A DNA stretch of 64,000 nt from a virus (lineage: Duplodnaviria > Heunggongvirae > Uroviricota > Caudoviricetes > Crassvirales): IMG/VR virus record IMGVR_UViG_3300020050_008479; one strand, 5' to 3'. Below, in pieces: positions 2,845 through 55,235 of this stretch; the stretch's first letter is position 1; every line of letters starts with the position of its first letter. The notes under the pieces were generated by a model. The model did no database searches. It had not been told where the DNA came from and saw only the letters and a list, made by a program, of their open reading frames with translations. A program made the translations under genes and the position numbers.

Positions 2845-4344
2845 TTACGCAAGAACGTAAGGGATAATCTGTGCAGTTCTAGAAGGGTCGTAAACAACAA
2901 CTCCTAATTGACACCATTTAGTAATGGTTCCTGCATCTTCCAATGTTCCCATGTTACCGTTGTTGGCTTCTCCAGTAAATGGATTTCTGAAACCCCATTG
3001 GTAACCTCTGTACTCTTCTTTTCCAGTAACCTTGACTTGTTGGATGTTAGGATCTTCTGGTGTTCCGATGTAGAAGATATCGAATCTGTAAGATTCAGCA
3101 ACTCCATTAGAACCAGGAATACGGATTGTATTTCTTACTTTGTCATCGTAGAAGTCATCAACCTCAACTTTAACAGTTACACCGTTTGGTGCTAAATACT
3201 CTGTAAATTGGAAACCTGCTTTGAATGCATTTGCGTGCAATTCAGATTGAGTTTTCATTACAGTGGCAGGGTTTGTACCTGGAGTTGACATGTTAGCAGC
3301 CCATCCTGAAGTGTGGTTTAATACAGCTTTGTGGAATTCAGCAGCTCCTCTTTCTCCAGTTCTTAAGATAAAGACACGTTTGTCAAATCCTAATTTTCCT
3401 TCTGACAATCCGAACAAGATTTCTTCCAACATCTCCAATGAGAACTCATTGTAGTAGAAAGTATTTGATTGTTCCATTTGTTCACGGATACCTGATCCAA
3501 TTTTGATAGCTCTACCAGAAACATCAAAGTTATGGTATTCACCGTCAGCAGTTCTGTTGGATTTACCATACATTAATGCTTTGTTTTTGTAAGCAGAAAA
3601 TTCTTGCTCAACTAACCAGTCTTCATAAAGGGCCAAAGTAGGGAATACTTTTTTGTTACCTTCTTTATCTAGAACTGGGATACCCATTGCTACTTTTTTA
3701 CCAGTTGCATCTCCAGGTAATTTGTGGTCGATACGGATAGTAGTTAACTCACCTCTCATAGAGATTGGAGTAACACGTCTAACACCACCAACTTCTCTAG
3801 ATAATCCACGACCTACTGGCGCAAACTCTTCTGAGAATCTTTTTCCTGAAACTAATTCTTCACCAGGAATACCATCTCTGTTTGAACCTGCACATTCGCA
3901 AGTATAAACATAAAGGTTACCTTCTGGACTACCATCGTCAATAACACGGATTGGGTAAACTTCATTTTTCTCTCCTGTAATTAATTCTCCTTTGAAGAAC
4001 CATTGCTCTGGGAAAGCTAATTCGAAAGTTGTACGACCTTCTCCAATATTGAAATCTCCGGCAGTTACCGTAGCTCCTTTGTAGCGCGCCTCATATAAAG
4101 GAATGTTACGTCTAGAACTTCCGATAAGTTCCCAATAGAACTCTCTATCGTCCTCTACATATTTTGTTTCAAATTGACTAAGCATATTCTCAAGAGATTT
4201 ACCTCTGTGGATTGCTAGTAATTTGATCATTGTGTCGTTAATCTTTTGTGGGTTCATCTTCCAAATAGCACCTAAAGTGTTTTCTGGATTAATCATTCCT
4301 GCAAAAGCCTTAGCGTCTGTTACCTGAAATTTACCTAATTGCAT
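2845..4344 (-). CDS. major capsid protein (putative)
   Basis: 499-aa ORF directly downstream of an acidic coiled-coil scaffold-like gene; composition and size are capsid-like; conserved late-gene order scaffold then capsid. Confidence 0.6.
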   Translation of the reverse strand: MQLGKFQVTDAKAFAGMINPENTLGAIWKMNPQKINDTMIKLLAIHRGKSLENMLSQFETKYVEDDREFYWELIGSSRRNIPLYEARYKGATVTAGDFNIGEGRTTFELAFPEQWFFKGELITGEKNEVYPIRVIDDGSPEGNLYVYTCECAGSNRDGIPGEELVSGKRFSEEFAPVGRGLSREVGGVRRVTPISMRGELTTIRIDHKLPGDATGKKVAMGIPVLDKEGNKKVFPTLALYEDWLVEQEFSAYKNKALMYGKSNRTADGEYHNFDVSGRAIKIGSGIREQMEQSNTFYYNEFSLEMLEEILFGLSEGKLGFDKRVFILRTGERGAAEFHKAVLNHTSGWAANMSTPGTNPATVMKTQSELHANAFKAGFQFTEYLAPNGVTVKVEVDDFYDDKVRNTIRIPGSNGVAESYRFDIFYIGTPEDPNIQQVKVTGKEEYRGYQWGFRNPFTGEANNGNMGTLEDAGTITKWCQLGVVVYDPSRTAQIIPYVLA

Positions 4345-8414: not shown

Positions 8415-10046
8415 TTATAAATTATTAAATATTGTTTTTATCCTCATTACTTCTTCAAAAGTTATTTCTCCGCCACCTCCTCCTGTTGCGTAGTTAGGAA
8501 TATTTAAGGTGCTTCCAACAAATGTTGAAGCTCCGCTTGTTCCTAAAGTAGTCAATGTTATATTATTTTGTTTACTTGTTAAATCATTGATAAGATTTGT
8601 CACTCCTGATTGAGGTATTCCTGTAAAATTAGATTCATTTACATTAATATCTATTCTGTCTGTTCCTGATAAAACAATAGACATCTTGTTATTTACCGGG
8701 TTTAGTTTATAAAATTCTAGATCAGACAATGTTTTTTGTTTAAAAACACCCACACCCACAGTTCCTGTGTTTGAAGCAGTGTTTACTTCTCCTGAACCAG
8801 CGCCTATGATTATATTACCAGAGCCTTCCAGGCTGCTTCCATTTACTGTTTTTAAAGGTCGTTTTGTTTGAATACTTGCTGTAGTTTCATCTCCTGTATT
8901 TACTCCGCTTGAGTCCCCAGAAAAGGTACCAGACTGAGTTGCTAAAGTTCCCAATCCTGTTATTGTGCTTACTGATTGTGTACCTGTATGATTTTCTCTA
9001 TTTCTATCTGAGTCATGAAAATGAAGATTAGAATTAGAATTATCGTCAAGTGTATTTAAATTAGCCGCAGTTATCGTAACATCAGTAGCTCCATCAGCAA
9101 GTAAATGATTATGAGCTGTAGGTGCATCACCTACAAACTGTATATCGCCATCTGTTATTGCTGTATCAAATTGAGCTTTAGTTCCAGTTATTCCTACTAT
9201 AGAAGTTTGATCACCTGTGTTTACTCCAGACTGATTATTTAACGTAGCTATAGTGGTTATTAGACCTACTAAAGTGTTTGCTGAGTTTACATTTCCTGAA
9301 GGAATTACATAATCAGTTCCAGGTACTGCTGCCGCAATAGTTGTACCATTGCTTTTTACTATTCCATTAATCGCTCTAACTATTGGATCAGTTTCTGAGT
9401 AAGAAGTTAAAAATCCAGAAGGATTTCCACTTAAAGGATAAGCATCTGTTATTCCGTATCCTGAAAGAGTAAAAGGCTTGTTAGTTATTGAGTCAAAAGT
9501 TTGTGCTGGAACTGAACTTATATAACCATTTGGATTTGAAGCGTCGTATTTAGAACTCCACTTGGAATAATTATTTAAAGTGTATGGAGTCACAAATTTA
9601 TCATCATTGACTCCTAAGTTGACTTCTGTAGAATTAGCTTGATATGGTTGCTCTACATAGGACCATACAACTCCTGTAGAATGATAAAGTCCTTTTGGAT
9701 AATAAGTTCCGCCTAAAGAACCTGGAAGCCATTTTGTTCCTTGTTCTGAATCAACAAAATAGAATTTTCCTGCTGCTAACTCAGCTGAAGGCAATTGATT
9801 GTAACCGGAAACTACGTTTATAACTGTTCCTAGTATTAAAGCATTAGTAGCTTCAAGTACAGTTCTGTCTATGTCTTCTTGAGTAACTCCTATTGTTTCG
9901 TTTGATATTTTCAATTCAGAAGGCGTTCCTGATTCTCCATATATAAAAAACTCTCTCGTATCTTCACATAAGTAAACACTACCTGGATTCAATGAGTGTG
10001 GAAGTTCAGATCTTAATCCATAATATTGATTTTGAGTTAATTTCAT
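8415..10046 (-). CDS. tail fibre / receptor-binding-like protein
   Basis: 543 aa; internal repeats (SGVNTGDQTS / SSGVNTGDETT); Gly/Thr/Asn-rich; between the portal-like gene and the lysis cassette. Confidence 0.45.
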   Translation of the reverse strand: MKLTQNQYYGLRSELPHSLNPGSVYLCEDTREFFIYGESGTPSELKISNETIGVTQEDIDRTVLEATNALILGTVINVVSGYNQLPSAELAAGKFYFVDSEQGTKWLPGSLGGTYYPKGLYHSTGVVWSYVEQPYQANSTEVNLGVNDDKFVTPYTLNNYSKWSSKYDASNPNGYISSVPAQTFDSITNKPFTLSGYGITDAYPLSGNPSGFLTSYSETDPIVRAINGIVKSNGTTIAAAVPGTDYVIPSGNVNSANTLVGLITTIATLNNQSGVNTGDQTSIVGITGTKAQFDTAITDGDIQFVGDAPTAHNHLLADGATDVTITAANLNTLDDNSNSNLHFHDSDRNRENHTGTQSVSTITGLGTLATQSGTFSGDSSGVNTGDETTASIQTKRPLKTVNGSSLEGSGNIIIGAGSGEVNTASNTGTVGVGVFKQKTLSDLEFYKLNPVNNKMSIVLSGTDRIDINVNESNFTGIPQSGVTNLINDLTSKQNNITLTTLGTSGASTFVGSTLNIPNYATGGGGGEITFEEVMRIKTIFNNL

Positions 10047-12448
10047 TATTTTTTACTTGTTGGTTTATTTGCTTGTTTCTTTTTCACTTCCAACTCTTTA
10101 GCTTTGTGTGCCATCATGTCTTTGTGTTTTGACATGTCGTTATTCATCTGTCCATGTTTTAAATGCATTTCCTCTTGAAACTTATTGTATTCAATATCAT
10201 CATTCTCATCATCTTCAGTTTTAATTAAATCTTGACCTGATTGCTCAATCTTTAATCTGTCTGTCTCAGCTTCAAGCTCTGCTATGTATCTTTTAGTATC
10301 GTCAGTTCTGTTGAATTGTTCAATATCTAATTGATTTCTAACTTCTGCCATTTGCTCATTAGATTGAATTTGCATCTCTTGCATTTTACGAGCCTCTTCA
10401 GATTGTTTCTGCATTGATTCGTTTTTATCATTCTCAGCTTTCTCAATCATTCTTTGAACTTCTCTTATTGAAGGAGAATTGTAAATTTTCATTGCCGTTG
10501 AAAATGAAAGCATTTGATTTTGCAATCCCATTTGGACCATTCCGTCAAGTTTCTGTTGCATCTCGTTAATTGCATCTTCATTTGAAACTTGCAATCCGTA
10601 TTCTTCTTCAGCAAACTCGTCTCCATCAATTTCCATAAGCTTTCTGGTCATATCATCAGCGATGTATGCAAACTTAACTTGATTTCCTTTTGATGCAATC
10701 TTGATTGTCTCTAGAAGTATTTGGAAACATCTTTTTTTACAGTAATCGTGAAGTGTAAATAATTCTTCTGTAATGTGATTAGATTGTGATACAGATCTTT
10801 CTACACCTCCTACAGTTTCTCTATTGTCTACCTGACCCATACGTTGTCTGGATACACCGATTATCTCATCCATTTGTGCTTTAGCAAACTCCATCATTTG
10901 AATGTGAGTCTGAATAAAGTCTCCAACTTTCTGTTCAAGAACTCTGCCGGTTGTATTACCTACGGCTCCTGCAAGTTTTCCTTTAGCCATACCTCTATTA
11001 CCCTCTTTGAAACTATCTACTACAGCAATACCAGACTTACGTGCGAAGTATAACCATTTAGTTACATTCCATCCTTCCGGAATCTTAGCTAAATCTAATT
11101 CTACAATAGAACCTAAGTACTTAGACAAAGCTTCATTTACTCTATACCATGAAATGTCGTATAAGTATTGGAATGGTTTAGATCTTTCCACTAATGAAAC
11201 GGCTCCTTGTTCGTTGGTATTGTAAACTTGTCCAACAATCCCAGATGAGTTATAGCTTGGCTGATTGATTTTATTGTACTGAATCTCTTTAGGTTTGATT
11301 TGCAAGTAGATATTTTTACCAACTTTAACGCCTTTCCACCATTCGTTAACCCAGAACTTCTCAGAAGTCTCTCCTCTTTCTTTATCAAGAATGTAGTCAG
11401 GACTTCTAAATTTAACTTGTTCTTTTCCAAATTCATCAAAGAAAGTTACTTTTAGTATTTCTTTTTTAGATTTCCAGAACATTCTTAAAACTCTTATATT
11501 ACCGTGTCCATCTGTGTATGTGTTCTTAGATGTGTTTGACCAAACTCCACTCATGTCAAGGAAAGAATTAATACTTTCTCTTTGCATCACCTCGTAGTTT
11601 TGCATATCATCGAATGCGTAAGATTCTCCATCTGAATCCTTTCCAGTTCCACCAGTACTTTCTTCGTCAAGCAAATCTATCTCTTTTGATTTTAAATCTT
11701 CGTAGAAGTGATCTTGAACTTTACCCGGGCTCCAGTAATCATCAATTACAATTATATCTGCATCTTCAATTTTATTCGAAGTTCCGGATCTTAATGTATG
11801 TACGTTTAATGGATTAAGTTTCTCGAAAGTTACTTGACCATTTACAATATCAGTCATGTAGATTTCTTCTCCCATGATAAGAGCGTCTTTAAATCCTTGT
11901 TGAAATTTTACTTTCATATCAAGAGATTCTATATGATACCTCATGTACATGTTGGCTCTCTTCTCTCTAACGTCTTGATAGTCATAGTTTATGTAGTCGC
12001 TAAATGCTTTCATGTCTTTCTCTAGTTCCTCTTCAGGCCTAGTAGATTCCAAGTATTCATTTAGTTTTTCTTGAACAAGTTTCATCTTGTCTTTTGAGAT
12101 CATAGCAATTGTATCTGGATTAGTTAAATTAACTGACCAGTCAAACTTACGTCTCTTCTCTTCGCCAATAAGAACATTTATTCTTGGAGTTACGATAGGA
12201 TAATGCTGAATCTTTTCCGGAACAAACATCTTCTCAATGTCTCCAGGATTAAGTATCAACTTCATATCGGCAGGATCTAGAATCCCATTATAGAGATTTA
12301 GATTTATTCGCTTACTTTTTAACCTTGCTCTTATTCGTCCACTATTAATGAAACTGTTGTTGTCTGCAAAGTCTAAATGAGCTTTTCTCCATTTTTTATC
12401 CTTCTTATTGAACGGAAGTTTTTGTTTAGGGAAATTACTTAATGACAT
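10046..12448 (-). CDS. portal protein (putative)
   Basis: 800 aa; position downstream of the terminase-like gene; highly charged coiled-coil C-terminal tail; no enzymatic motifs. Confidence 0.4.
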   Translation of the reverse strand: MSLSNFPKQKLPFNKKDKKWRKAHLDFADNNSFINSGRIRARLKSKRINLNLYNGILDPADMKLILNPGDIEKMFVPEKIQHYPIVTPRINVLIGEEKRRKFDWSVNLTNPDTIAMISKDKMKLVQEKLNEYLESTRPEEELEKDMKAFSDYINYDYQDVREKRANMYMRYHIESLDMKVKFQQGFKDALIMGEEIYMTDIVNGQVTFEKLNPLNVHTLRSGTSNKIEDADIIVIDDYWSPGKVQDHFYEDLKSKEIDLLDEESTGGTGKDSDGESYAFDDMQNYEVMQRESINSFLDMSGVWSNTSKNTYTDGHGNIRVLRMFWKSKKEILKVTFFDEFGKEQVKFRSPDYILDKERGETSEKFWVNEWWKGVKVGKNIYLQIKPKEIQYNKINQPSYNSSGIVGQVYNTNEQGAVSLVERSKPFQYLYDISWYRVNEALSKYLGSIVELDLAKIPEGWNVTKWLYFARKSGIAVVDSFKEGNRGMAKGKLAGAVGNTTGRVLEQKVGDFIQTHIQMMEFAKAQMDEIIGVSRQRMGQVDNRETVGGVERSVSQSNHITEELFTLHDYCKKRCFQILLETIKIASKGNQVKFAYIADDMTRKLMEIDGDEFAEEEYGLQVSNEDAINEMQQKLDGMVQMGLQNQMLSFSTAMKIYNSPSIREVQRMIEKAENDKNESMQKQSEEARKMQEMQIQSNEQMAEVRNQLDIEQFNRTDDTKRYIAELEAETDRLKIEQSGQDLIKTEDDENDDIEYNKFQEEMHLKHGQMNNDMSKHKDMMAHKAKELEVKKKQANKPTSKK

Positions 12449-12516: not shown

Positions 12517-14862
12517 TTACATCCATGGCATTTTCTGCTCTTCCATTGTTCCTAATGCTTTGGCCCAGTTAGCATCTAAGAAATCATCTCCAGTCATTGA
12601 ATTAATATGCATGTTAGATTTCTCTTCATACTTATCTACCATTTTTGCTCTATCTTCTCTTAAGATCATCACCATATCCATTGCAGAAACTCTATCCGCA
12701 TTTATGTCAGCATTCCAGGCTATACATTCTTTGATGTATCCAATACTTCTAATTCTTCTTAAGTTCTGAATGAATGTAGTTTGCATATCTCCATTCTCTT
12801 CATCATAAAGTTCAATCTCATATTGAGACATCATCCATTGACGTTGAAGTGTTTTACCTAGTTTTATAACTTCCTTAGTCGTTCTGGTTCCTTTGGCTCT
12901 GTTTCCATGTAAAATAGTTTTTGCTATGTACATATCTTTTAAAATTTCAGGAGTATCAGACAGCAAATGTAATGCATTATGATTAGAAAAGTACGTAAAG
13001 AGTCCTTTTAAATTGCTCTCGTAATTTGCTTCCGCGTTGTAGTAAGAAGTAAGTCTTAAGCAAATCTCATAAAACTCTTCAGCCAATACAGGTCTTGCTG
13101 TGTATTCTGCAACAATTTTATCTGTCCACATATCAAACACGAATATTGAAGCTAATGATCCGTTAACTGTATAATCATTATCAATAGGGTCAATCCCGGC
13201 AATATATCTACCAGAGAATACTTTTCCGTCTCTATCTTTCTGCGGCATATCAAAAATTTCAACAGCTCCATCTGATTTACCACCTTTCACTACGTATGGA
13301 AATTCACGTATTGGTGTTATACTTGGATCTGGCGCCCAAGTAACATTTCCTTTATTATCATAAGATAACTTACCAACCCAATGCTCGTCAACGAAACGGT
13401 CGATATTAGGCATGATATCTTCTAAGTAATCTCTCAAGTCACCTACTGGAAATGCGCTTCCCTCTGTCCTCATAATAGCTTCCTGAGGAGTTATAGGGTG
13501 TTCTGCTTTCTTTTGAACAATTGCATTTGGATCAGAAGCTCCGTATTTAGTTTTAAGCCTATCTTTTACAGTTAGAATTAAAGCTCCAACAACATCGCTA
13601 TTTCCATTCTTATCATACTTTCCTTTAAAGTTCATATAAGTTCCAAAGAAGAATGAGCATCTTCCTCTACCACCTGTATTTTTATCAAACACGTTTGGCA
13701 ATGAATAAATGTTATATCCATCCCCATTGTAGAATATCTCTTCCAAACCATCAAAGGCTGCTCCTTCAGTACCACCGGTTCCGTAAGCATTCATTATTCC
13801 AAAGGCAAATCCATCTTCTTCTACAGAAGGTCTCGCGATTCCCCAAGCAACCAAGAAGTTGTCAAACTTTCCTGCTTCTTCCCATTCAATAAGAGAACCC
13901 CTTTTACCCCTGGCTTTCTCCGGGTCATTCTTTAGAGTAACTCCCATCACTTCGTTAAGAGTTCCAACATCTGTACCAGTTTTAGAATCTTTACGACCCA
14001 TCTTCCAGTGCATATCATTCAATGAATCTTTTAAACTTCTTACTCCAGGGAATCCTGTATGTATCGCGCAGAAATCTGCAATAGCTAAGAATTTGTTTAA
14101 TACACCATCTTTAGTTAAATACTCTTTCTCATTGGCAACAGCGTAAGATTTAATCTTATGTCTAGCTACTTCTGATTCACCTAATATAAAGTTACGAGCC
14201 ATTTTAGATCCGCCTTTAAAGGAGAATCCTGAACCCCTCTTCTTAAGAGTTGCAGTATGTTTACCTGCATTACGCGCTTGTTCTAAGTAATGATAGAATA
14301 AATAATCTCCATCATACACGTTAGGAAATGCTTCCACACGACCGGCACGTTGTGTTCCTTCAACAACCTCTACTTTCAAGATTGGAGAATAGTTCAAGTA
14401 AAAGTAGTAGAATCCTGGGATCCATTCACCATCAGATGGTCTAAAGTGTCCCTCTCTACATCTCCTTGCTTCTTCTTTCCAATACTTAAAGTACTCACTA
14501 TTAGGGTTTCTATTAGGAAATAACCTAGTATAAACTCCATGTTTCTCAAAATGAATAGCTGCTTCTCTGAAGAAATCCATGTCTTCCAAGATGTGAGGAT
14601 TAGTTATGTCTACGACTATTTTACCATTAGGGTCCAGTGTTCTTACTTTTGCTCCAGGAATTACAGCTATTGTTGGAAGCGCCGGGTTATCCCAACGTTC
14701 TAAATCTTTAGCGTATAACCTAGATGGAGAAGATAAATTCTGCAAAAACATAATAGAATCAAGCATTTCGAATAGATCAGCTTCCTCTTCCTTGTTCATG
14801 TGTGACATTAGATCTGCCGTTAAGTCAGTCTGTATCTTGTTAAACTTTCTATAGTTATCCAT
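12517..14862 (-). CDS. terminase large subunit (putative)
   Basis: 781 aa; deviant P-loop-like KKRGSGFSFKGGSK near residue 200; position between a small upstream gene and the portal-like gene. Confidence 0.4.
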   Translation of the reverse strand: MDNYRKFNKIQTDLTADLMSHMNKEEEADLFEMLDSIMFLQNLSSPSRLYAKDLERWDNPALPTIAVIPGAKVRTLDPNGKIVVDITNPHILEDMDFFREAAIHFEKHGVYTRLFPNRNPNSEYFKYWKEEARRCREGHFRPSDGEWIPGFYYFYLNYSPILKVEVVEGTQRAGRVEAFPNVYDGDYLFYHYLEQARNAGKHTATLKKRGSGFSFKGGSKMARNFILGESEVARHKIKSYAVANEKEYLTKDGVLNKFLAIADFCAIHTGFPGVRSLKDSLNDMHWKMGRKDSKTGTDVGTLNEVMGVTLKNDPEKARGKRGSLIEWEEAGKFDNFLVAWGIARPSVEEDGFAFGIMNAYGTGGTEGAAFDGLEEIFYNGDGYNIYSLPNVFDKNTGGRGRCSFFFGTYMNFKGKYDKNGNSDVVGALILTVKDRLKTKYGASDPNAIVQKKAEHPITPQEAIMRTEGSAFPVGDLRDYLEDIMPNIDRFVDEHWVGKLSYDNKGNVTWAPDPSITPIREFPYVVKGGKSDGAVEIFDMPQKDRDGKVFSGRYIAGIDPIDNDYTVNGSLASIFVFDMWTDKIVAEYTARPVLAEEFYEICLRLTSYYNAEANYESNLKGLFTYFSNHNALHLLSDTPEILKDMYIAKTILHGNRAKGTRTTKEVIKLGKTLQRQWMMSQYEIELYDEENGDMQTTFIQNLRRIRSIGYIKECIAWNADINADRVSAMDMVMILREDRAKMVDKYEEKSNMHINSMTGDDFLDANWAKALGTMEEQKMPWM

Positions 14863-17369: not shown

Positions 17370-17726
17370 TTATTTTTTTTCTAAGAAAGGCTTTCCGTAT
17401 TTAGCTTCATAGAAGTCTTCCCATTCTGTTATATGGGCGCTCTCTACTGAAGTATTCCCACAAGGTATACAATATACCACACTCTTTTCTTTTCCTGTCG
17501 TAAGGTCTAATTTGCCTTCAAACTTTACTTCTTTTAAATGAAGTGATAGACATGTTTTACAATATTCTACCGGGACGTTGTTGTAATCTGATTTCCTTGT
17601 TACCATTTTTTGTTTTGTTTTTAAGTCTTGAATTGTCTCTGTTGAGTAATAAGGAAATGGACACAATAAGTTATAGTCCTCTCTCTTCTTTATTTCTGCT
17701 GCTAAATTAATATCTTTTTTCTTCAT
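17370..17726 (-). CDS. Cys-rich (zinc-ribbon-like) protein
   Basis: 118 aa with CxxC ... CxxC (CKTC ... CIPCGN). Confidence 0.45.
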   Translation of the reverse strand: MKKKDINLAAEIKKREDYNLLCPFPYYSTETIQDLKTKQKMVTRKSDYNNVPVEYCKTCLSLHLKEVKFEGKLDLTTGKEKSVVYCIPCGNTSVESAHITEWEDFYEAKYGKPFLEKK

Positions 17727-17748
17727 TTCCTATTGTTTTTTAATCTTT

Positions 17749-17967
17749 CTACCAATTGCCTTCTGGACATGAGGTATTTATAGCTCTTACCTTTGCTGCC
17801 AATACGCATCCGCATGTTGAACATAACAATCCGTCTTTATTTGATGGACATACGTCACATACTTTTCTTCTTGTAGCAAATAAAACTTCTTCTTCTTCTG
17901 TTGTTAAATTAAGTTTACTTCTCAATATGTTTTTGAATCCGCCTGCAATCTCTTCTATCTTACTCAT
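17749..17967 (-). CDS. small Cys-rich protein
   Basis: 72 aa, CDVCP ... CSTCGC ... SCPEG. Confidence 0.4.
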   Translation of the reverse strand: MSKIEEIAGGFKNILRSKLNLTTEEEEVLFATRRKVCDVCPSNKDGLLCSTCGCVLAAKVRAINTSCPEGNW

Positions 17968-18205
17968 AACTATCTACTGTAATTAACTCTATTAAAATTC
18001 CGCTATCTTTTAGCATAAAAATTATTCCTGACATTGACCTGAATCTTATTGCCGACCGTGTCCTTTCCAGCAATTCAAGTAATAATTCCTGAATACAGGA
18101 GGTAGAGAAAAGAGTAATTGATCTCTCACCGGCGTCAGCCGCAGATTTTATAACACCTTTAAGTTTCTCTTTATAAGAATCACTTGGTAATATTACTACT
18201 TTCAT
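17960..18205 (-). CDS. hypothetical protein
   Basis: 81-aa ORF. Confidence 0.4.
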   Translation of the reverse strand: MKVVILPSDSYKEKLKGVIKSAADAGERSITLFSTSCIQELLLELLERTRSAIRFRSMSGIIFMLKDSGILIELITVDSYE

Positions 18206-18211
18206 CTAGAT

Positions 18212-18484
18212 TTATTTTTTTAATTCTGCTTCAATCATGTCTTGAACTTTATCTACTTCTCTTTGAAGCTCTTCAACTGATATGTGTCCTTTATCTACTC
18301 CGTAGTTTATTCTGTTAAGCAAGATTCTTCTTTCTTCAGCTCCCATGGAGCTAACTCTTAATCTTACTAGTGCGTAATGTTTTATCAATAACTCTTTGTC
18401 CATAGAAAGTATTCTATTCTGAGTAGGAGTGAATACATTGGTCTTCCTTTTTATTGTTTCTGCTCTTTTCTTTAAAAATGCCAT
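18212..18484 (-). CDS. hypothetical protein
   Basis: 90-aa ORF. Confidence 0.4.
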   Translation of the reverse strand: MAFLKKRAETIKRKTNVFTPTQNRILSMDKELLIKHYALVRLRVSSMGAEERRILLNRINYGVDKGHISVEELQREVDKVQDMIEAELKK

Positions 18485-19238: not shown

Positions 19239-19550
19239 TTACTTTACTATGTATATATTAGTTGGCCTTTTATACTCCTTAACTTCTCCTTCGTGTAGAA
19301 TGTAGTCGTCTGTGTAATCTACATTAGGTTCATTTTCGCATCTACACGCATAATGTATCTGGCATCCTGCTATCACTACATGATTCTCATCAGTACCTAC
19401 TCTTGCATACCAATTTGTGCTTCTTGCGTTAGTCTTAACTCCAAGAATTCTATCGTCTACAATTTTTACTTCTCCCCATACTGACTTATATTGTTTCCCG
19501 TCCGGAGCGTAGAACCAAGCATCAGTTGTTATTAGATATTTTCCAGTCAT
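19239..19550 (-). CDS. hypothetical protein
   Basis: 103-aa ORF. Confidence 0.4.
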   Translation of the reverse strand: MTGKYLITTDAWFYAPDGKQYKSVWGEVKIVDDRILGVKTNARSTNWYARVGTDENHVVIAGCQIHYACRCENEPNVDYTDDYILHEGEVKEYKRPTNIYIVK

Positions 19551-19551
19551 A

Positions 19552-19746
19552 TTATTTATTTTTTATTCCGTTTATGAATTTTTGTAATACTAATTCTATA
19601 AAGATTGTTGATGATTCGTGAGCATTGCCCTCAAACTTTAATGTTTCTCCTTCTATAATGAATTTACCTACTTCTTTTCCATCACTATTGTGAAATGAAA
19701 TTGTTGGCTTAAGGCTTGAATCTTTTAATACTAATTTATCTTTCAT
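19552..19746 (-). CDS. hypothetical protein
   Basis: 64-aa ORF, first gene of the block. Confidence 0.35.
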   Translation of the reverse strand: MKDKLVLKDSSLKPTISFHNSDGKEVGKFIIEGETLKFEGNAHESSTIFIELVLQKFINGIKNK

Positions 19747-19855
19747 GTTCTTTTTATTTAAGTTACAAAGCTAAACTAAAATAGCTTATAAACAAAAAAA
19801 TCCTTAGAATATATTTCTAAGGATTCAAACTACTTCTAGTTTTATCGGATTGAAG

Positions 19856-19939: not shown

Positions 19940-20021
19940 ATAGCTGATTGTGAGAATTACGATATCCCGACCTGATGATTAACAACCAACTGCTCTTCCT
20001 CTGAGCTAACAATCAATATTG

Positions 20022-20803: not shown

Positions 20804-20891
20804 TTGGGTAGGTAGGAATTGAACCTACATAGTCTTATTTGTTTGCGACAGAGTTACAGTCTGCGGACGTAGCCAATTTGTCATCTACCCA
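20804..20891 (-). tRNA. tRNA-Tyr (anticodon GTA), type II
   Basis: Acceptor TGGGTAG/CTACCCA; anticodon stem GCAGA/TCTGT with loop CTGTAAC; long variable arm; T-arm GTAGG-TTCAATT-CCTAC. Confidence 0.6.
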
Positions 20892-20904: not shown

Positions 20905-20978
20905 AGGGTACAATAGGATTCGAACCTATGTTCTTCAGGTTTGCAGCCATCTACTTTATACCACTCAGTCATGTACCC
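20905..20978 (-). tRNA. tRNA-like gene, possibly Cys (GCA); weak anticodon stem
   Basis: Perfect acceptor GGGTACA/TGTACCC; T-arm ATAGG-TTCGAAT-CCTAT; loop CTGCAAA present but its stem has only 2 Watson-Crick pairs. Confidence 0.45.
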
Positions 20979-21497: not shown

Positions 21498-21752
21498 ATG
21501 GAAAAAGAAGATTATGTAGAGTTGTTTAGAAAGGAGTTTTTGAAACTAAATTTCGCACTAGACAGTTACAAACACAAGTGTAAAGCCAACTGGGCTGTAG
21601 TTAATTCAAAGGTTCATATCACTTTTGATACAGGTAACGATAAAGACTTCTTGAGGTATGAACTAGGACTTGAAGAAGCTAAGGATTTTCTTCATGACTT
21701 TAAAAAGAAGTGTATTGACATCTGTTCACACATTAAAAAAGAGGCTATTTAG
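21498..21752 (+). CDS. hypothetical protein
   Basis: 85 aa from the internal ATG at 21498 (A/T-rich leader); lone plus-strand gene, convergent with the operon to its right. Confidence 0.4.
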   Translation: MEKEDYVELFRKEFLKLNFALDSYKHKCKANWAVVNSKVHITFDTGNDKDFLRYELGLEEAKDFLHDFKKKCIDICSHIKKEAI

Positions 21753-21930
21753 CCTCTTTTGTTGTTAATATAAGTTTCTTTCTTTTGTATTTGTGATCAT
21801 TTACAATATCACCAGTGTGTTTTATTTGTTCACATTGTTCGTAAGTTAATGTCCTTACTGATCCTATATCACTAAGACTCATTGTCATTCCGCTGCTAAC
21901 GTATGTTTTAAAATCTACTCTTTCTTCCAT
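21745..21930 (-). CDS. hypothetical small protein
   Basis: 61-aa ORF, last gene of the small-protein operon; start overlaps the upstream gene's C-terminal codons. Confidence 0.4.
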   Translation of the reverse strand: MEERVDFKTYVSSGMTMSLSDIGSVRTLTYEQCEQIKHTGDIVNDHKYKRKKLILTTKEAK

Positions 21931-22133
21931 GTTAGTTTCTTTTTAGGTCCTTTTACATTTCTTAATTCATCCTTGAGTTTATTTTCTCTCTTTGTTTCTT
22001 CTTGCAGGTAGTTCATTACCTTCATTAATTCAGTAAATTGTTCTAATGATGTTGCTTCAAACTTATGAAGCGTACTCATTTGCTCTCTTATTCCTGGCCC
22101 CATCTTTATGTTTCCGTCTGATATCTCACTCAT
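21915..22133 (-). CDS. small protein with C-terminal KGPKKKL tail
   Basis: 72 aa ending ...NVKGPKKKLTWKKE; ATGA overlap with the upstream gene. Confidence 0.5.
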   Translation of the reverse strand: MSEISDGNIKMGPGIREQMSTLHKFEATSLEQFTELMKVMNYLQEETKRENKLKDELRNVKGPKKKLTWKKE

Positions 22134-22537
22134 ATTTTTAGTTTTTTCTTTGGTCCTTTTATTACTTCTTGTTCTTTTAACAATGAACTATTAAATTTCT
22201 TAATTTCATCGTATAATGGATCGTTTTGGATTTGAACTGTAGTCCCACAAGGAAGTTTCATTGTTGTAAACACTTTTCTCGGATCAATTGAATCCATTAC
22301 TTCCATTCTAAATGATTCAGATGGAGTTAATGGCCTTGATACATCTAGCGCTTTGTCGTGCCAATGAGAGTTTATTGGTGGCAGTGAAGCATACTTCCAT
22401 TCAGTCTTGAATACATCTCTAATTGCTTTCTCTAATTCTTTCTTTGTTATATTGTAAAGAAACTTCTGCTTTCTCTTTGGCATTACTTCTAAAGGAGGAT
22501 TCATTACGTATCTTTTGCTCTTATCTCTTTTCTTCAT
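22130..22537 (-). CDS. small protein with C-terminal KGPKKKLKI tail
   Basis: 135 aa ending ...EVIKGPKKKLKI. Confidence 0.5.
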   Translation of the reverse strand: MKKRDKSKRYVMNPPLEVMPKRKQKFLYNITKKELEKAIRDVFKTEWKYASLPPINSHWHDKALDVSRPLTPSESFRMEVMDSIDPRKVFTTMKLPCGTTVQIQNDPLYDEIKKFNSSLLKEQEVIKGPKKKLKI

Positions 22538-22560
22538 AATTTGCTTTATTACATAGCTAT

Positions 22561-22935
22561 TTAAAACTTAAGCTTCTTTTTAGGTTGTTTAATTACATTT
22601 TCTTTTTTAGTAAGAACTGTACTTATGAGGAATAAAGCTTTAGCTGTTTCTTCATTTATTCTCTCTACCCCTCTTGATATTAAAAACTTTTTAACTAATT
22701 CAGCTTTTTCTAATGAATCAAGATACTCAAATGGAAGATCATTCTTAATGAAGTTTGATGTAGAAGAAAACTGCGGTCTTGGTTTAGAAGTTGATAATCC
22801 AGCTGTGTGTTTGTATGTTGCTCCTGATGATGACGTTCCGGTCATACTGTATCCTAAATATTCAGATGACCTTATCGATGTAACTAACTGATTGTCAATT
22901 TTTATTTTTTTTTCAAATATTGATTCTTCTTCCAT
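22561..22935 (-). CDS. small protein with C-terminal KQPKKKLKF tail
   Basis: 124 aa ending ...NVIKQPKKKLKF; Ser/Thr-rich middle. Confidence 0.5.
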   Translation of the reverse strand: MEEESIFEKKIKIDNQLVTSIRSSEYLGYSMTGTSSSGATYKHTAGLSTSKPRPQFSSTSNFIKNDLPFEYLDSLEKAELVKKFLISRGVERINEETAKALFLISTVLTKKENVIKQPKKKLKF

Positions 22936-26702: not shown

Positions 26703-27515
26703 ATGAAAATTATAGGACAAATAGAATTAGTAAAAGAAACAAGTAAAATATTTGAGATATTTAGAGCGTCTGATGCTGAAATAAGACCTCACTTTTTACT
26801 TACAGGGCCATCAGGATCAGGAAAATCATTTACAATTGCTCAATTAGCAAAGAAGTTTAACTTAGGATTCATAGAAGTTAATGCAGCTCAATTGACTAAA
26901 GAGGGAACGTCTGGTAATTCTTTATCAAAAGCATTGGCTCCAATTGGACAATCAGGAGGAAAGCCAACTGTAGTATTTGTTGATGAATTTGACAAACTAT
27001 TCATATCTGGAAACAGTAATGATAGTTGCGCTCATGAATCTACAACCGGAGTGCAAAACGAATTTCTTAAAATACTAGAATCTGACACTGCTTCAGTCTT
27101 TGGTGATTATGGAAAATACGTCAATGTTCCAATTAACAATACATTATTTGTATTTGCAGGAGCTTTTAACGGAGAAGAAAACATTTCAATCGACAGGCTA
27201 AGAGAAATTGGAATAAAAACAGAATTCTTAGGAAGAGTTGGACTCGTATTCAATACATGCCCTTTAACTATAGAAGACATGAATAATATAATAGATTCAT
27301 CTAGCTTAATAGATAAATACTTAGCATTATTCGACGCTGTTAATAGAGAAGATGTAGTATCTAGAATAAAAGAAGTAGTAAAGAATAACTTTGAAATGAA
27401 TACAATTGGTGCTAGATTAATAAATACTCTAGTTCATCAATACTTTATAAAAGGAGGATTACTTGAAGAATCAGTAGTGAAAGAAATATCATTTCAATCT
27501 AAGCTTACTCTTTAA
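26703..27515 (+). CDS. AAA+ ATPase, ClpX-like unfoldase core domain
   Basis: Walker A LLTGPSGSGKSF and following segment align with ClpX ([21 protein letters not shown] ... TTLTEAGYVG); Walker B VVFVDEFDKL; only 270 aa, with no N-terminal zinc-binding domain. Confidence 0.6.
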   Translation: MKIIGQIELVKETSKIFEIFRASDAEIRPHFLLTGPSGSGKSFTIAQLAKKFNLGFIEVNAAQLTKEGTSGNSLSKALAPIGQSGGKPTVVFVDEFDKLFISGNSNDSCAHESTTGVQNEFLKILESDTASVFGDYGKYVNVPINNTLFVFAGAFNGEENISIDRLREIGIKTEFLGRVGLVFNTCPLTIEDMNNIIDSSSLIDKYLALFDAVNREDVVSRIKEVVKNNFEMNTIGARLINTLVHQYFIKGGLLEESVVKEISFQSKLTL

Positions 27516-27521
27516 TTAAAA

Positions 27522-27586
27522 GGCAATGTAGCTTAATGGTAAAAGCACTGGAATACGGATGGAGCCTCGATAAGCTTCCATTGCCA
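27522..27586 (+). tRNA. tRNA-like element (truncated / pseudo-tRNA?)
   Basis: Perfect 7-bp acceptor GGCAATG/CATTGCC; D-arm GCTT-AATGGTAAA-AAGC; T-like arm GGAGC-CTCGATAA-GCTTC; anticodon arm too short (65 nt total). Confidence 0.3.
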
Positions 27587-31398: not shown

Positions 31399-31578
31399 AT
31401 GAGAGTTTTAGTATTTATTTTATGTATGATTGCATCAATAGCATCAATCTTACAAGCATTCAGAATGATTAATCAACCTAGTTGGTTATGGAATACAGCA
31501 GGCGCGGTAGTGTTGTTTCTAATAGGTTATTCTATCGCAAAAACAAATTTTTTTACACAATTTAAAAAGAAAAAGTAA
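31399..31578 (+). CDS. small two-TM membrane protein (candidate partner of the SPFH protein)
   Basis: 59 aa, MRVLVFILCMIASIASILQAF ... AGAVVLFLIGYSIAK ... KKKK; its stop overlaps the SPFH gene start (TAATGA). Confidence 0.4.
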   Translation: MRVLVFILCMIASIASILQAFRMINQPSWLWNTAGAVVLFLIGYSIAKTNFFTQFKKKK

Positions 31579-32438
31579 TGAAGAAAGTATTATTAAGATT
31601 GACAGCAGTATTATTTATTGTTGGTATTATTACAAGCTCTTGCACAACTACAGATAGTGCTGAAGTAGCATTAGTTGTTGACCAGATGGGTAATGACAAA
31701 GGTATTCCAAATGTAACTCCTGCATCAGGATTTGTATTCTATTTTCCACCAACACAAGACGTGTTCACTTATCCAACTTCAATCCAACATAAAGTTTGGA
31801 CATCAGAAGTAACTGACGGAAGTGAATTTGATGAGCATATTGACGTTGTGTCTTCAGATGGAGCAACATTTGGCTTAAATGTATCTTTAAATTTACAATT
31901 AAAAAGAGAAAGTGCTAAAGATGTGTTTATAAAGTACCGAATAGGTATGGATGAATTACTACAAACTAGAGTAAAAGCAATCGTTAGAAAAGCATTAAGA
32001 GACAATTCAGTAACATTTGCTTCTGATTCATTGATTCAACATGGAAATGTGTATGAAGATAAAGTGAATTCAGCTCTTGCGGTATTGCTTGATAAAGAAG
32101 GATTTACATCTGTAACTCTTGCTGTATTGAAAGCTGATATGCCTGCATCTTATAGAAATGCAATTAATAGCAAAATTAAAGTAATTCAGGAAACTGCAAC
32201 AATTAAGTCACAGACATTGAAAGCTGAACAACAAGCATTACAAAAGGTAGCTGAAGCAAAAGGAAACTTTGAGGCTGCTGAATACAATGCAAGAACTAAA
32301 GCAATTATGTCTCAACCTAAAATGTTAGAGTTGTATCGTGCAGAAACAGAAAGAGTATGGGCTGAAAGCGGAGTTTCTCCTTATGGATCAAACAATGTAT
32401 TTGGATCAGCTGGCAATATTCTTTTGAATAGAAAATAA
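31578..32438 (+). CDS. SPFH/band-7 (stomatin/prohibitin/HflKC-like) domain lipoprotein
   Basis: Signal peptide with lipobox-like cysteine (LFIVGIITSSC); core resembles the SPFH domain followed by a coiled-coil region (KAEQQALQKVAEAKGNFEAAEYNARTKAIM). Confidence 0.5.
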   Translation: MKKVLLRLTAVLFIVGIITSSCTTTDSAEVALVVDQMGNDKGIPNVTPASGFVFYFPPTQDVFTYPTSIQHKVWTSEVTDGSEFDEHIDVVSSDGATFGLNVSLNLQLKRESAKDVFIKYRIGMDELLQTRVKAIVRKALRDNSVTFASDSLIQHGNVYEDKVNSALAVLLDKEGFTSVTLAVLKADMPASYRNAINSKIKVIQETATIKSQTLKAEQQALQKVAEAKGNFEAAEYNARTKAIMSQPKMLELYRAETERVWAESGVSPYGSNNVFGSAGNILLNRK

Positions 32439-32860: not shown

Positions 32861-33294
32861 GGGGCCGCTTGGTTTTGACAGGTTAAATACGCAGTAAGAT
32901 CAGCTCCGAGAGATAACGGATAATAACTAAGGTGAATCATTTTAAATGACAACAATCAAGTTTCAGCCAATATGGCTACAGTAGGTTCATTACTTAACGT
33001 TAACGCTCCGGCAAGAACAATGAGAATGGCAGCATAATACTCTTAGAAGTAATGCGACTCAACATTGGCAAGAGTATAAATTTGCCATAAATTTTAACGT
33101 ACATAGTGCGTTACAACTCATGAGAGAGATTGCATTTATGCACTCATGAGTGTTGAGCTATAAATGCTATCATCTCAAAACTTCTAGATTTAGTATTGTT
33201 TGAGAGAAGGAAAAGGCTAAACTTTACAAAAGCTGTATAAATCTTATTGTTACACTTTAATTTTGGACGGGGGTTCGACTCCCCCCGGCTCCAC
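32861..33294 (+). ncRNA. ssrA: tmRNA (ssrA-like transfer-messenger RNA)
   Basis: 5' end GGGGCCG-CTT-GGTTTTGACAGG resembles the E. coli tmRNA 5' end GGGGCUG-AUUCU-GGAUUCGACGGG; 3' end GGACGGGGGTTCGACTCCCCCCGGCTCCA resembles E. coli GGACGCGGGUUCAACUCCCGCCAGCUCCA; the 7-bp acceptor pairs GGGGCCG with CGGCTCC 434 nt away; an internal short frame ends ...APARTMRMAA-TAA (Ala-Ala-stop, as in tag peptides). Confidence 0.65.
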
Positions 33295-33556
33295 AATTTA
33301 TAAAATCACTTGCTTGAAGATAAACAATAATATAAATACGAATTAACGTATGGTGTTAGCTCTAAGAAGAGTACTTAAAATGTCAAAAAGTATATTATAA
33401 GCTGTACTAGCAGTTGTGTTTGTTGTAAAGATGTTAAATTATAAGCAATTAAGGAGATCATCCTTGTATGTGAAAGATTTCATACTATTATTCCGACTAG
33501 AAAGGACAAGTGATTTTTTAAATAATAAATAGAAGGAAAACTATAGAAACCTGAAT

Positions 33557-45919: not shown

Positions 45920-46819
45920 ATGTCATCATTTGGAAAAAGCATTGAAGTAAAAGAAGGTGGAGCAAGAGTATATTACACAGGAGTAAATAACTTTGATGTT
46001 ATCGCCGTTAACCCAACTAAAGATGAGTTGGGTAAAATCTACGGAAGAGACGTAGATTACGATCCTGAATACGTTGGAACTACAAACATTTCTGATGCAG
46101 GTGGAGAAAGAGAAGTTAATCAAGTTAGAATTGATTTCTACTTGAGAAATGAAGCAGATAAGATCAATGTGAAAGCATCTTTCTATCTTGCTGACACTTA
46201 TCACAAATCAGCGACTGGTAAACTAAAAGTAATAAACGACTTTGGTAATACTACTTGGTTGACTGAAACTGATATCAAAGGAGGAACTGCTCCAGACAAC
46301 ATGGGATGGTACAACATGAGTGGAGTTAAAGTTGCTAAAAGAGGAGAAGAAGAAATCATTGACTTCTTAAAGAATTTATTGAATCTTCCTATTGACTTGA
46401 GTAAACTTGCAGATTTATCTGAAGCTCACGCGAAATTCCCCAAAGAAGTTTTAACTTCTATGTTTAAAGGAGACGTTTCTTTATTGAAACAAATTGTAGA
46501 TTCAAGTAACAACAAGATTGGAATTTTGTTAGGTGTAAAAACTAATGCAGAAGGTAAAATCATGCAAGCAGTTTATACTAAGAAAACTCTTAGACAGTAC
46601 GTATTGCATTCTACAAAAGCAGATAAATTCAAATATCTTCAAAAAGATTTAGCTGATGCTAAAGCTAATGGAGCTTACGGAAACGTAGACTTCGGAAGAA
46701 ACGACTTAGCTTTTAGAGAGTTCGTAATTACTCCTACTGAGATTTCTGCAGAAAACTTGCCATCTGAAGAAGATGCATTCCCTGCTGCGGAACCAGAAGA
46801 AGAAGACTGGTTGAACTAA
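45920..46819 (+). CDS. putative ssDNA-binding / annealing protein
   Basis: 299 aa; acidic C-terminal tail EEDAFPAAEPEEEDWLN; located between the AAA_24 ATPase and the primase. Confidence 0.35.
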   Translation: MSSFGKSIEVKEGGARVYYTGVNNFDVIAVNPTKDELGKIYGRDVDYDPEYVGTTNISDAGGEREVNQVRIDFYLRNEADKINVKASFYLADTYHKSATGKLKVINDFGNTTWLTETDIKGGTAPDNMGWYNMSGVKVAKRGEEEIIDFLKNLLNLPIDLSKLADLSEAHAKFPKEVLTSMFKGDVSLLKQIVDSSNNKIGILLGVKTNAEGKIMQAVYTKKTLRQYVLHSTKADKFKYLQKDLADAKANGAYGNVDFGRNDLAFREFVITPTEISAENLPSEEDAFPAAEPEEEDWLN

Positions 46820-48952: not shown

Positions 48953-49996
48953 ATGACTACAAGAGTAATTGACACAAATTTAATTAAGAAAGAGGAAGTA
49001 TTTAGAATTTTAGCATTAGCTGAAGCAACGGGCTTAGCTATGTTACTGATCGGACCTCCAGGAGTTGCGAAAACTGCGTCAGTTATTGACTACGCTAAAG
49101 CTGCCGGGAATGGAACTCTAGCGAATGATGAGTTGTTTATCTTGGAAACAGATGAAGGAACAAAATCAACCGCTGTTAAAGGAAATATCGATTTAGAGGA
49201 GCTTACTCTTAATCAGAAATACAAAGTAATTTCTCCAATTACTAAAGCAAAATTTGTTGTTATTAATGAGGTTGATAAAGCTTCTGCGTCATTAAGAAAT
49301 TCATTGTTAGGAGTAATGAATGAAAAAGTATTGTTTAATGGTAAAGATGCAGTTCCTTGTGATTGGAATGTATTTGTTGCAACTTGTAATAAAATCCCTG
49401 AAGACGAGATAGGTTCTCCATTCTGGGATAGATTTATGATTACTTTTGAAGTAGAAAGAGTACGTCAAAGTGACATCATGGATTACTATGCAAAAGGAGC
49501 AAAGGCATTTAAAAAGAAAAACACAATCAATCTTCCAACTCCTGCTGATATTGCAGCAATCGCTCTTAGTCCTGTTAAGTTAGGAAAAGTAGTTGATTTA
49601 GCTTATGCTAAATTATCTGATAGAACTTTATCTTACCTTCCTACATTGGTAAAAAACATTATGATTGTTTACAATTGTGCTGAGAATGGAGCTTTGATTA
49701 AGGCTGTAGAATTGTTGATTGGAAAGGCAGAAGCTAATGTATTAGCTAAAGCTTTAGTTCCACAAGAATTAAGATTAATCTATGACAAAATAGATATGCT
49801 TGCTGCATCTTCAGACTATAACGAGTATTCTCGTATTACTGACGAAATCAACTTAATGACAGTTGATTTGATGAATAAAGGTAAATTATCTGACGTAGAT
49901 AAAGATGACATTCAAAACAAATACGAACAAGCTCAAGATAAACTTGAATTCTTAGTTGAAGACGAGAACATGGGCGACACAGAAGACGAATTTTAA
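48953..49996 (+). CDS. MoxR/AAA_5-like ATPase
   Basis: Walker A LLIGPPGVAKTA, Walker B VVINEVDKA, sensor N; 347 aa. Confidence 0.65.
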   Translation: MTTRVIDTNLIKKEEVFRILALAEATGLAMLLIGPPGVAKTASVIDYAKAAGNGTLANDELFILETDEGTKSTAVKGNIDLEELTLNQKYKVISPITKAKFVVINEVDKASASLRNSLLGVMNEKVLFNGKDAVPCDWNVFVATCNKIPEDEIGSPFWDRFMITFEVERVRQSDIMDYYAKGAKAFKKKNTINLPTPADIAAIALSPVKLGKVVDLAYAKLSDRTLSYLPTLVKNIMIVYNCAENGALIKAVELLIGKAEANVLAKALVPQELRLIYDKIDMLAASSDYNEYSRITDEINLMTVDLMNKGKLSDVDKDDIQNKYEQAQDKLEFLVEDENMGDTEDEF

Positions 49997-51992: not shown

Positions 51993-52256
51993 ATGACAAC
52001 AACAGAGTTATTAGCATTAGCTAATAAAACTTTAGAAAAATACGCAATGCCAGCTTTTGCTGATGCATTACGAGAAAAGAGATTCACTCATTTGAGAAAC
52101 ATAGCCGAGAAATGTATTGACAAGGCAAAAGATGCTTTAATAGAGAATGCAATCAGAGAATACTGCGATCCAGTAGTAACTTCTCACTACAAATTAGCAA
52201 ATGATTTAATGAATGAAACTTTAGAGTTTATCATTGTAAATTCAGAAGTTAATTAA
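51993..52256 (+). CDS. hypothetical protein
   Basis: 87-aa ORF. Confidence 0.4.
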   Translation: MTTTELLALANKTLEKYAMPAFADALREKRFTHLRNIAEKCIDKAKDALIENAIREYCDPVVTSHYKLANDLMNETLEFIIVNSEVN

Positions 52257-54378: not shown

Positions 54379-54687
54379 ATGAAGAAGAAAGCGCAAGTAG
54401 AGACAGCGAAGGAAAAAGAAACTCGGATACGGAAGTTAAGAAGCAGAACTTATAGTTGGGATAAAACAGATATGAATTATTGTTTAGAAAATGGAATTTC
54501 AATCTATCCGGCATGTCAACCTAATGGAAAAATACTACTCTTTGCTCAGCAAGGAGAAAGGTTTAAGCCACTTGACAATAAGATTTATGGACAAGCAAAC
54601 GAAGAAGAATGCCTTGAGTACACGGTAGCAATTATTGACGCGTATACAGAATACGCTGATAAAATAAGATTAAAAAAGAAAGAATGA
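54379..54687 (+). CDS. hypothetical protein
   Basis: 102 aa; ATGA overlap with the next gene. Confidence 0.4.
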   Translation: MKKKAQVETAKEKETRIRKLRSRTYSWDKTDMNYCLENGISIYPACQPNGKILLFAQQGERFKPLDNKIYGQANEEECLEYTVAIIDAYTEYADKIRLKKKE

Positions 54688-54923
54688 TTGGGTCTAAGTT
54701 TGAATTAAACAAAAGAACTTACGTTTTAATCAAAGAAGAAACTAAAGGGCATTGTACCGGATGCGTGTTTGAAGATATTCATGGCGACGGCAATCTTTGT
54801 TCTTTAGTTTATTCTACAACAGCAAGCGGTGATAGTGGTAAAATGTGTCAATATTTTGATGCAATATTCGCTGAAGTGTTTCCTGAAGTAACAAAAGGCG
54901 TTAAAAAAAAATTATCTTTATGA
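54684..54923 (+). CDS. small CxxC protein with C-terminal KGVKKKLSL tail (tandem paralog 1)
   Basis: 79 aa; GHCTGCVFEDIHGDG ... C; ends KGVKKKLSL; ATGA overlap with its paralog. Confidence 0.5.
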   Translation: MIGSKFELNKRTYVLIKEETKGHCTGCVFEDIHGDGNLCSLVYSTTASGDSGKMCQYFDAIFAEVFPEVTKGVKKKLSL

Positions 54924-55150: not shown

Positions 55151-55235
55151 AGCTTACCTTAAATGGAAGAGAATAGATATTCGAATAAGTTCAAGAAAAG
55201 AAACGAACCTATCAAAGAGAAAAAAAGTAAAAACC

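Follow-up and report, generated by a model that had tools for sequence, protein, structure and literature searches.

A C-terminal peptide shared by ten small proteins and the ClpX/HslU-like ATPase of a crAss-like phage

The window analysed here, meaning the whole 64,000-nucleotide stretch of the IMG/VR virus record IMGVR_UViG_3300020050_008479 (Crassvirales), encodes ten small proteins that share a lysine-rich C-terminal peptide, and an AAA+ ATPase of the ClpX/HslU clade, the conserved C-terminus of which has the K-K-L-x-L/F core in common with them. An earlier note on this DNA, made from the sequence alone, had described at least nine such tails on proteins whose bodies are not alike. All nine are present, in frame and at the ends of open reading frames (ORFs), and a tenth was added at 21745-21930 (-). 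The bodies are indeed mostly unrelated, but two paralogue groups exist among the ten carriers, hence we count approximately seven unrelated body types. A separate operon of early genes encodes four carriers, and the other six come at the end of the replication operon, beside the ligase gene; the carriers sit in plastic regions of small ORFans. Searches of PHROGs and Pfam assigned none of the ten tail proteins to a family.

The early operon carriers are all encoded on the minus strand. The tenth carrier, a 61-aa ORF (21745-21930), ends in KYKRKKLIL followed by TTKEAK (KYKRKKLILTTKEAK), and the six codons after its tail make up a terminator stem (hairpin at 21737-21760). Its orthologues keep the tail, as KYKRKKLILNTKEAR in locus L025 and KFKKKKLTWNQ in L036. 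Next to it, a 72-aa ORF (21915-22133) ends in KGPKKKLTW plus KKE, with the ATG of the next gene falling within the T-W codons of the tail, and its orthologues end in GPKKKLEWKKE, GPKKNLLWKN or GPKKELKWKTEI. A 135-aa ORF (22130-22537) ends in KGPKKKLKI, its orthologues being 98-101 aa long with the ends KGPKLKLIL, KGPKIKLTL and KGHKLKLTL, and a 124-aa ORF (22561-22935) ends in KQPKKKLKF, with KQPKKKLKF or KQAKKKLII in its orthologues.

The replication operon carriers are encoded on the plus strand and include both paralogue groups. Two tandem paralogues (E = 3e-7), of 79 aa (54684-54923) and 76 aa (54920-55150), end in KGVKKKLSL and in KGVKKKLTL plus N, respectively. They are followed by a 95-aa ORF (57087-57374) ending in HKRKKLIL, for which YKKLKLTL, HERKKLIL and HKKLKLTL are the ends of the orthologues. 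A weak paralogue family (E = 2e-5 to 3e-3) comprises the remaining three: the gene at 58490-58897, which encodes 100 aa from an ATG at 58595 or 135 aa from a GTG at 58490 (P0012 has the long form), ends in TGPRLKLKL and is followed by a gap of 291 nt; a 116-aa ORF (59189-59539) ending in KRERKKLIL; and a 104-aa ORF (59539-59853) ending in AGPRIKLKF. An AlphaFold2 (AF2) model of the 59189-59539 protein shows an alpha/beta body with a mean predicted local distance difference test (pLDDT) score of 76 and a disordered tail, residues 109-116 scoring below 50.

Across the ten ORFs the motif [KR]-x-K-L-x-[LIFW] lies at the C-terminus or at most six residues from it, and three of the ten tails then carry one to six residues more. 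The K-K-L-x-[L/F/I/W] core is usually preceded by G-P or by further basic residues; the small tails contain two hydrophobic residues and are positively charged (net +3 to +5). The earlier note had called for a check of whether the tail is specific to C-termini, and the enrichment there is strong. Where the internal rate predicts 0.07, seven of the 106 ORFs of the window have the exact end [KR].K[LI].[ILFVMW] (binomial P = 1e-12), and ten carry the motif within six residues of the end where 0.47 would be expected (P = 1e-10); shuffled proteins gave a mean of 0.085. The tail has the features of a short linear motif (SLiM), being short, predicted to be disordered, conserved among orthologues (L001-L003, L025, L027 and L036), position-specific and present on unrelated carriers.

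The synonymous variation of the underlying codons, which the earlier note had taken as a sign of peptide-level selection, was seen again and extends to 41 tails, drawn from this window and from close relatives. Leucine occupies position -2 in 39 of these 41 tails, encoded by TTA (n = 15), CTA (n = 12), CTT (n = 6), TTG (n = 5) and CTC (n = 1), so that the amino acid has an entropy of 0.28 bit here, compared with 1.2-1.3 bit for the first and third codon positions. Glycine is likewise encoded by GGA, GGC or GGT, proline by CCA or CCT and arginine by AGA, AGG or CGT. Between orthologous tails of close relatives we observed synonymous switches of Arg from AGA to CGT, of Leu among CTT, CTA, TTA and TTG, and of Gly among GGC, GGA and GGT, while the residue changes were conservative (K/R, L/I and L/I/F). 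Furthermore, a nucleotide matrix built from the ten sites recovered only those ten from the whole window, all in frame at ORF ends, with scores of 19-28 for the sites and 14 for the best non-site. This top non-site (14.0) lies directly 3' of the 54920-55150 tail, at 55138-55161 (+), reads NLKLKLTL in the +2 frame and looks like a short local duplication of tail-coding sequence.

The note had also raised a trivial alternative, that A-rich initiation regions of downstream genes impose lysine codons on upstream C-termini, in which case the same nucleotide motif should recur untranslated elsewhere; no copy occurs in other frames or in the intergenic regions of the window. The next start codon lies anywhere from -16 nt to more than 700 nt from the tail. 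It overlaps the tail in five of the ten cases and does not in the other five, and among the 28 overlapping gene pairs 23 have no tail. The DNA flanking the tails is unrelated. As the DNA motif has no copy elsewhere, the distance to the start is not fixed and codons turn over, the initiation-region explanation is refuted. Selection at the peptide level is borne out by the nucleotide matrix, the start distances, the synonymous turnover and the entropy of Leu(-2), and what it maintains is a short linear peptide motif on a stalk predicted to be disordered.

The ClpX-like ATPase that the earlier note had placed nearby is a 270-aa protein at 26703-27515 (+), approximately 4 kb away, and it ends in SFQSKLTL. 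A phmmer search of the PDB matched ClpX (E = 6e-16) and HslU (1e-12), the top 50 Foldseek hits were all ClpX or HslU, and NCBIfam gave partial matches to both, with 66 bits for ClpX against a cut-off of 359. An AAA+ module of the ClpX/HslU clade is confirmed by the motifs GPSGSGKS, VDEFDK, GVQNEFLKILES and GARLI, the features looked for being Walker A/B, a GVQQxLLKxLEG-type motif and the sensor-2 GAR. The protein begins approximately 28 residues before Walker A and has no zinc-binding N-domain; it also has no I-domain, the alignment shows deletions of the RKH and IGF segments, and the pore-1 GYVG is replaced by a conserved non-aromatic G[TIVL][SA]G, in the loop KEG[TIVL][SA]GNS (KEG[TIVL][SA]GNSLSKAL). 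In the AF2 model (mean pLDDT 79.5) tail residues 266-270 fall below 50 on an otherwise confident body.

This ATPase family is large, with 2067 homologue clusters at E <= 1e-10, and ranges over crAss-like phages, Chryseobacterium phage MA9V-3 and many N4-like Schitoviridae. Its members are 59-75% identical across phages that otherwise share almost nothing (L047-L110). Among the 120 closest clusters, 111 have the end F-Q-[KNSR]-K-L-[KTS]-[LFM] plus zero to six residues, 58 of these 111 carrying one to six extra, and the family consensus is [ST]-F-Q-K-K-L-[KTS]-[LF] plus zero to six residues. The motif holds to about 59% identity among 46 distinct homologues from viral-contig loci, examples being FQKKLKL, FNKKLEWK, FQKTLSLK and STFQNKLKFGE, and two cultured phages, MA9V-3 and Shigella phage B2, have the same ATPase tail.

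The tails of the small proteins match this conserved flexible tail of the phage's own ATPase. The pattern KL.[LFMIW].{0,6}$ matches exactly 11 of the 106 window proteins, which are the ten tail-bearing proteins and the ATPase. When a position-specific scoring matrix was built from the ATPase-family tails alone, the same 11 proteins took the first 11 places among the 106 C-termini; of the small tails, three scored above 14, and none of 16,684 internal windows of the proteome reached 10. The two tail classes have in common the core, the near-terminal place, the extensions of zero to six residues, a pLDDT below 50 and a tryptophan variant (FNKKLEWK in the ATPase, GPKKKLEWKKE in the small proteins).

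In contrast to the ATPase tail, the small-protein tails are limited to a narrow clade. They are kept in close relatives, with a ligase 70-84% identical (L001-L003) or a TerL 93-96% identical (L025, L027 and L036), and absent in relatives with ligase identity of 49% or below or TerL identity of 76% or below. Relatives add the variants GPKKNLLWKN, GPKKELKWKTEI, GPRKQLDI, KQAKKKLII and QVRKKLKL. For the 59189 family a word search found close homologues only, and a profile search of 1.8 billion representatives found 17 proteins, with all 15 of the remote members retrieved ending in the motif; in the 20%-identical 59189 paralogue family just five columns are invariant, and the K-L of the tail accounts for two of them. 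When IMG/VR was scanned for the exact coding pattern GPKKKLx-Phi-stop (Phi, hydrophobic residue), there were eight matches, and only the one from the known clade lay at an ORF end. The ATPase-tail matrix matched 11 of 244 ORFs in the clade loci compared with nine of 3286 in all other loci examined, and no small tail proteins were seen in MA9V-3 (1-50000) or Shigella phage B2 (1-36000). A sporadic tail-like carrier outside the clade was observed on an unrelated contig, where the ORF immediately preceding the ATPase gene encodes 71 aa with the end RKHKLVL (L052:9448-9663).

The remainder of the window is that of a crAss-like phage with a GC content of approximately 34%, encoding a Crassvirales-type major head protein (2845-4344), a portal (10046-12448), a large terminase (12517-14862) and a replication module at 39-57 kb with helicases, primase, a Sak4-like protein, exonuclease and ligase. 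The coding strand changes near 23.7 kb and 60.2 kb. A megablast search of GenBank phages with both tail loci gave no match, and no near-identical phage is present in GenBank. ARAGORN called 13 tRNAs and Rfam added further ones (19944-20015, 20805-20890, 20905-20978 and 27522-27586). An unusually long tRNA-like element of 96 nt (59079-59174 (+); Rfam tRNA, 36.8 bits; no ARAGORN call) sits in the 291-nt gap 3' of the tail-bearing gene 58490-58897.

Rfam also detected a transfer-messenger RNA (tmRNA; RF00023, 80.6 bits, E = 1e-29) at 32861-33296 (+), not called by ARAGORN, whose tag, read from the aligned resume codon, ends in APARTMRMAA. Between the ClpX-like ATPase and the tmRNA lies an SPFH/Band-7 domain protein (31578-32438 (+); PF01145, E = 5e-13), and these three possibly constitute a proteostasis island. 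Chryseobacterium phage MA9V-3 has a tmRNA too, approximately 4 kb from its own ClpX-like ATPase gene.

A second AAA+ protein, at 48953-49996 (+), was ruled out as ClpX-like, being MoxR-type (PF20030). Directly after it, a 493-aa protein (50014-51495 (+)) has a long acidic D/G-rich linker and a DCSGSM motif resembling a metal ion-dependent adhesion site (MIDAS). Inside this gene, a stop-free +1 frame (50429-50713 (+)) spans the GAGAAAAAAG run and ends in KGLRKKLTI, which is exactly terminal in L002 and L003. We judged it a by-product of a conserved frame-0 GFEKKVDD and the stop-free D/G-rich linker rather than an additional carrier, though a +1 slip there would give the N-terminal half of the VWA-like protein a tail-like end. 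N4-like Shigella phage B2 (L122) has the same trio of MoxR, partner and ClpX-like ATPase within 4 kb (gp1, gp2 and gp5). Given that many genes are clade-specific, co-occurrence with MoxR/VWA carries no information. In phage B2, which has the same ATPase family, the SSB gp23 (17691-18434) and gp27 (19353-19799) share a different C-terminal peptide (PTKSLFAK and PTKSLFARN). Acidic C-termini, some with a terminal aromatic residue, were observed on the replication-module proteins 45920-46819, 48953-49996 and 52256-53362 (+), with the ends EPEEEDWLN, GDTEDEF and IKEIDDED, which we take to resemble the acidic tails of the SSB and T7 gp2.5/gp4 type.

The presence of the same peptide on the ATPase suggests that the small proteins probably plug into whatever its tail docks to. 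ClpX docks onto ClpP through its IGF loop, and tails of proteasomal ATPases (HbYX) insert into the 20S core. As the phage ATPase has no IGF loop, RKH loop or pore-1 tyrosine, a different docking element is plausible. In HslU, C-terminal peptides bind pockets of HslV and activate it, and mimetics compete for these pockets (PMC6429459). By analogy, the ATPase hexamer may dock onto a partner via its C-terminal tails, and within one narrow clade of marine crAss-like phages about seven unrelated small families of the early and replication modules would have acquired the same peptide. The small tails would then copy the docking tail of the ATPase, and their carriers would bind the same receptor, a reading to which we give a probability of roughly 50%. 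On binding, they might act as competitors there, modulate the receptor or be delivered to it. The receptor could be a self-compartmentalised peptidase of the host or the ATPase ring itself, and in the latter case a small tail would act as a client or adaptor tag, with the ATPase's own copy being autoregulatory.

Several observations weigh against this proposal. F-Q is near-invariant in the ATPase tail but missing from the small tails, G-P is missing from the ATPase, and only five positions are shared, all in a lysine-rich context in an AT-rich genome. Most ATPase-bearing phages have no tail-bearing small proteins within +/-10 kb (the nine of 3286 against 11 of 244 ORFs given above), hence the ATPase tail works without them. 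No peptidase was found among the window proteins tested, the ATPase has no conserved or universal neighbour in 64 loci, and tail-less ATPase homologues have no compensating IGF-like insertion. With a pore loop devoid of aromatic residues, the ATPase may not be a protein unfoldase at all. A more specific version, in which the IGF-less ATPase ring docks onto host ClpP or HslV by its KKLxL tails and at least seven small proteins are natural ligands of the docking pockets, is speculative and in our view doubtful. If it were true, the small proteins, analogous to acyldepsipeptides (ADEPs) or HslU-tail peptides, might obstruct host unfoldases, cause the peptidase gate to open or bring in cargo, and together with the phage tmRNA would form a system that reprogrammes host proteolysis.

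Rather than copying a docking peptide, the tail could serve an AAA+ machine as a recognition tag or degron; that machine would be the phage ATPase itself, or host ClpXP with the tail as a C-motif-2-type signal. As clients, the small proteins would be unfolded, remodelled or degraded at set times, and the ATPase tail would have an auto-recognition or autoregulatory role. In composition, with basic residues and then a hydrophobic C-terminus, the tails resemble the C-motif-2 degron of MuA (CILEQNRRKKAI, ending in RRKKAI; PMC12723719), the ATPase has the same motif, and the tmRNA with its tag ending in RMAA suggests that the phage engages the tagging and proteolysis axis. However, the likeness to RRKKAI is loose, with no L-x-Phi in MuA, three of the ten tails continue for one to six residues, no tagged clients lie nearby in other ATPase-bearing phages, and the phage ATPase is devoid of the aromatic pore-1 loop, the RKH loop and the IGF loop, which together make a degron possible but rather unlikely. 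Direct mimicry of the tmRNA tag was rejected, its RMAA end being unlike the tails, as was a PDZ class II ligand (Phi-x-Phi-COOH), given the one to six extra residues on three of ten small and 58 of 111 ATPase tails. A generic basic-hydrophobic anchor to DNA, RNA or anionic membrane, co-localising the ATPase and the small proteins with no specific receptor, would suit the positive charge of the tails (net +3 to +5), their two hydrophobic residues and the location of the carriers in early and replication modules. We consider it improbable, as Leu(-2) is fixed in 39 of 41 tails with a hydrophobic residue exactly two positions on, whereas L, I, N, E, Q and H are all accepted at the lysine positions, a pattern better explained by a motif that binds a pocket than by charge alone; eight residues would also make a short amphipathic membrane helix.

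The docking partner could also be a hub of the replisome, for instance the host beta-clamp, helicase or SSB, given that six carriers end the replication operon beside the ligase and that distant relatives carry a clamp motif, as described below. The four carriers in the separate early operon do not fit this, the motif on a ClpX/HslU-like ATPase is left unexplained, and the resemblance to clamp-binding motifs suggested in the earlier note does not hold. The clamp motif is Q-phi-x-[LM]-[FL] or Q-phi-x-[LM]-x-[FL] (PMC11139829), whereas the tails have no glutamine, are one residue short and retain only L-x-Phi before the terminus. A canonical form of the clamp motif does occur in distant crAss-like relatives, where a 646-647-aa protein with a weak, below-threshold match to family-B DNA polymerases (E about 1e-4; L010:6868-8808 and L016:6488-8431) ends in QQLSLF or TQLSLF, implying that these relatives use the host clamp. 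A hub of this kind is very unlikely to be what the tails bind in the phage studied here. Explanations at the DNA or RNA level, namely A-rich initiation without a Shine-Dalgarno sequence or ATGA/TAATG overlaps that impose Lys and Leu codons, a boundary cassette for recombination carried by shuffled genes, or a nascent-peptide or termination-pausing element that couples translation, draw on the five tails that overlap the next start, the A-rich tails and the plastic ORFan regions. They are largely refuted and retain hardly any probability, in view of the absence of further matrix copies in any frame or intergenic region (14 against 19-28), the variable start distance, the 23 tail-less overlapping pairs, the extensive synonymous turnover with unrelated flanks, and the occurrence of this peptide on the ATPase of phages whose gene neighbourhoods are unrelated.

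Our literature searches on the motif, on phage ClpX-like ATPases and on crAss early proteins found nothing relevant, and no description either of the tail of the ATPase or of small proteins that have this tail in common. Should the copying of the ATPase docking tail hold, it would provide the first functional handle on a widespread, unstudied phage AAA+ ATPase (>2000 homologue clusters), and also a handle on ORFan early proteins with no other annotation. It would furthermore describe a route by which phages spread one docking peptide over unrelated proteins, and could yield natural peptide ligands for the docking pockets of bacterial proteases.

The principles involved, C-terminal docking tails of AAA+ proteins and viral motif mimicry, are known, and our finding is a variant of these. 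The nearest match of the phage ATPase in sequence and structure is ClpX, from which it differs by the loss of the zinc-binding N-domain, GYVG, RKH loop and IGF loop. Proteins annotated as 'ATP-dependent Clp protease ATP-binding subunit' in N4-like (Schitoviridae) phages and MA9V-3 belong to the same family (45-66% identity) and mostly have the same C-terminal FQxKLx[LF]. Like HslU, the phage ATPase is a member of the ClpX/HslU clade with a conserved, flexible, hydrophobic-ended C-terminal peptide, and the IGF loop is absent in both. Escherichia coli HslU ends in SRFIL, the phage tail differs in sequence (FQKKLKL), and the phage protein has neither an I-domain nor an aromatic pore loop, with no HslV or other peptidase identified among the window proteins tested. 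To our knowledge, separate small tail-bearing proteins are not known for HslUV. Free HslU-tail peptides can occupy the HslV pockets (PMC6429459). The C-motif-2 degron of MuA shares the order of basic then hydrophobic residues with the tails, but not their fixed L-x-Phi. Viral SLiM mimicry and hub-docking tails, such as the clamp motifs on T4 and bacterial proteins, likewise place one short disordered peptide on unrelated carriers, where it is conserved among orthologues and gained repeatedly; the difference here is that the model copied would be the tail of the phage's own protein and not a host motif.

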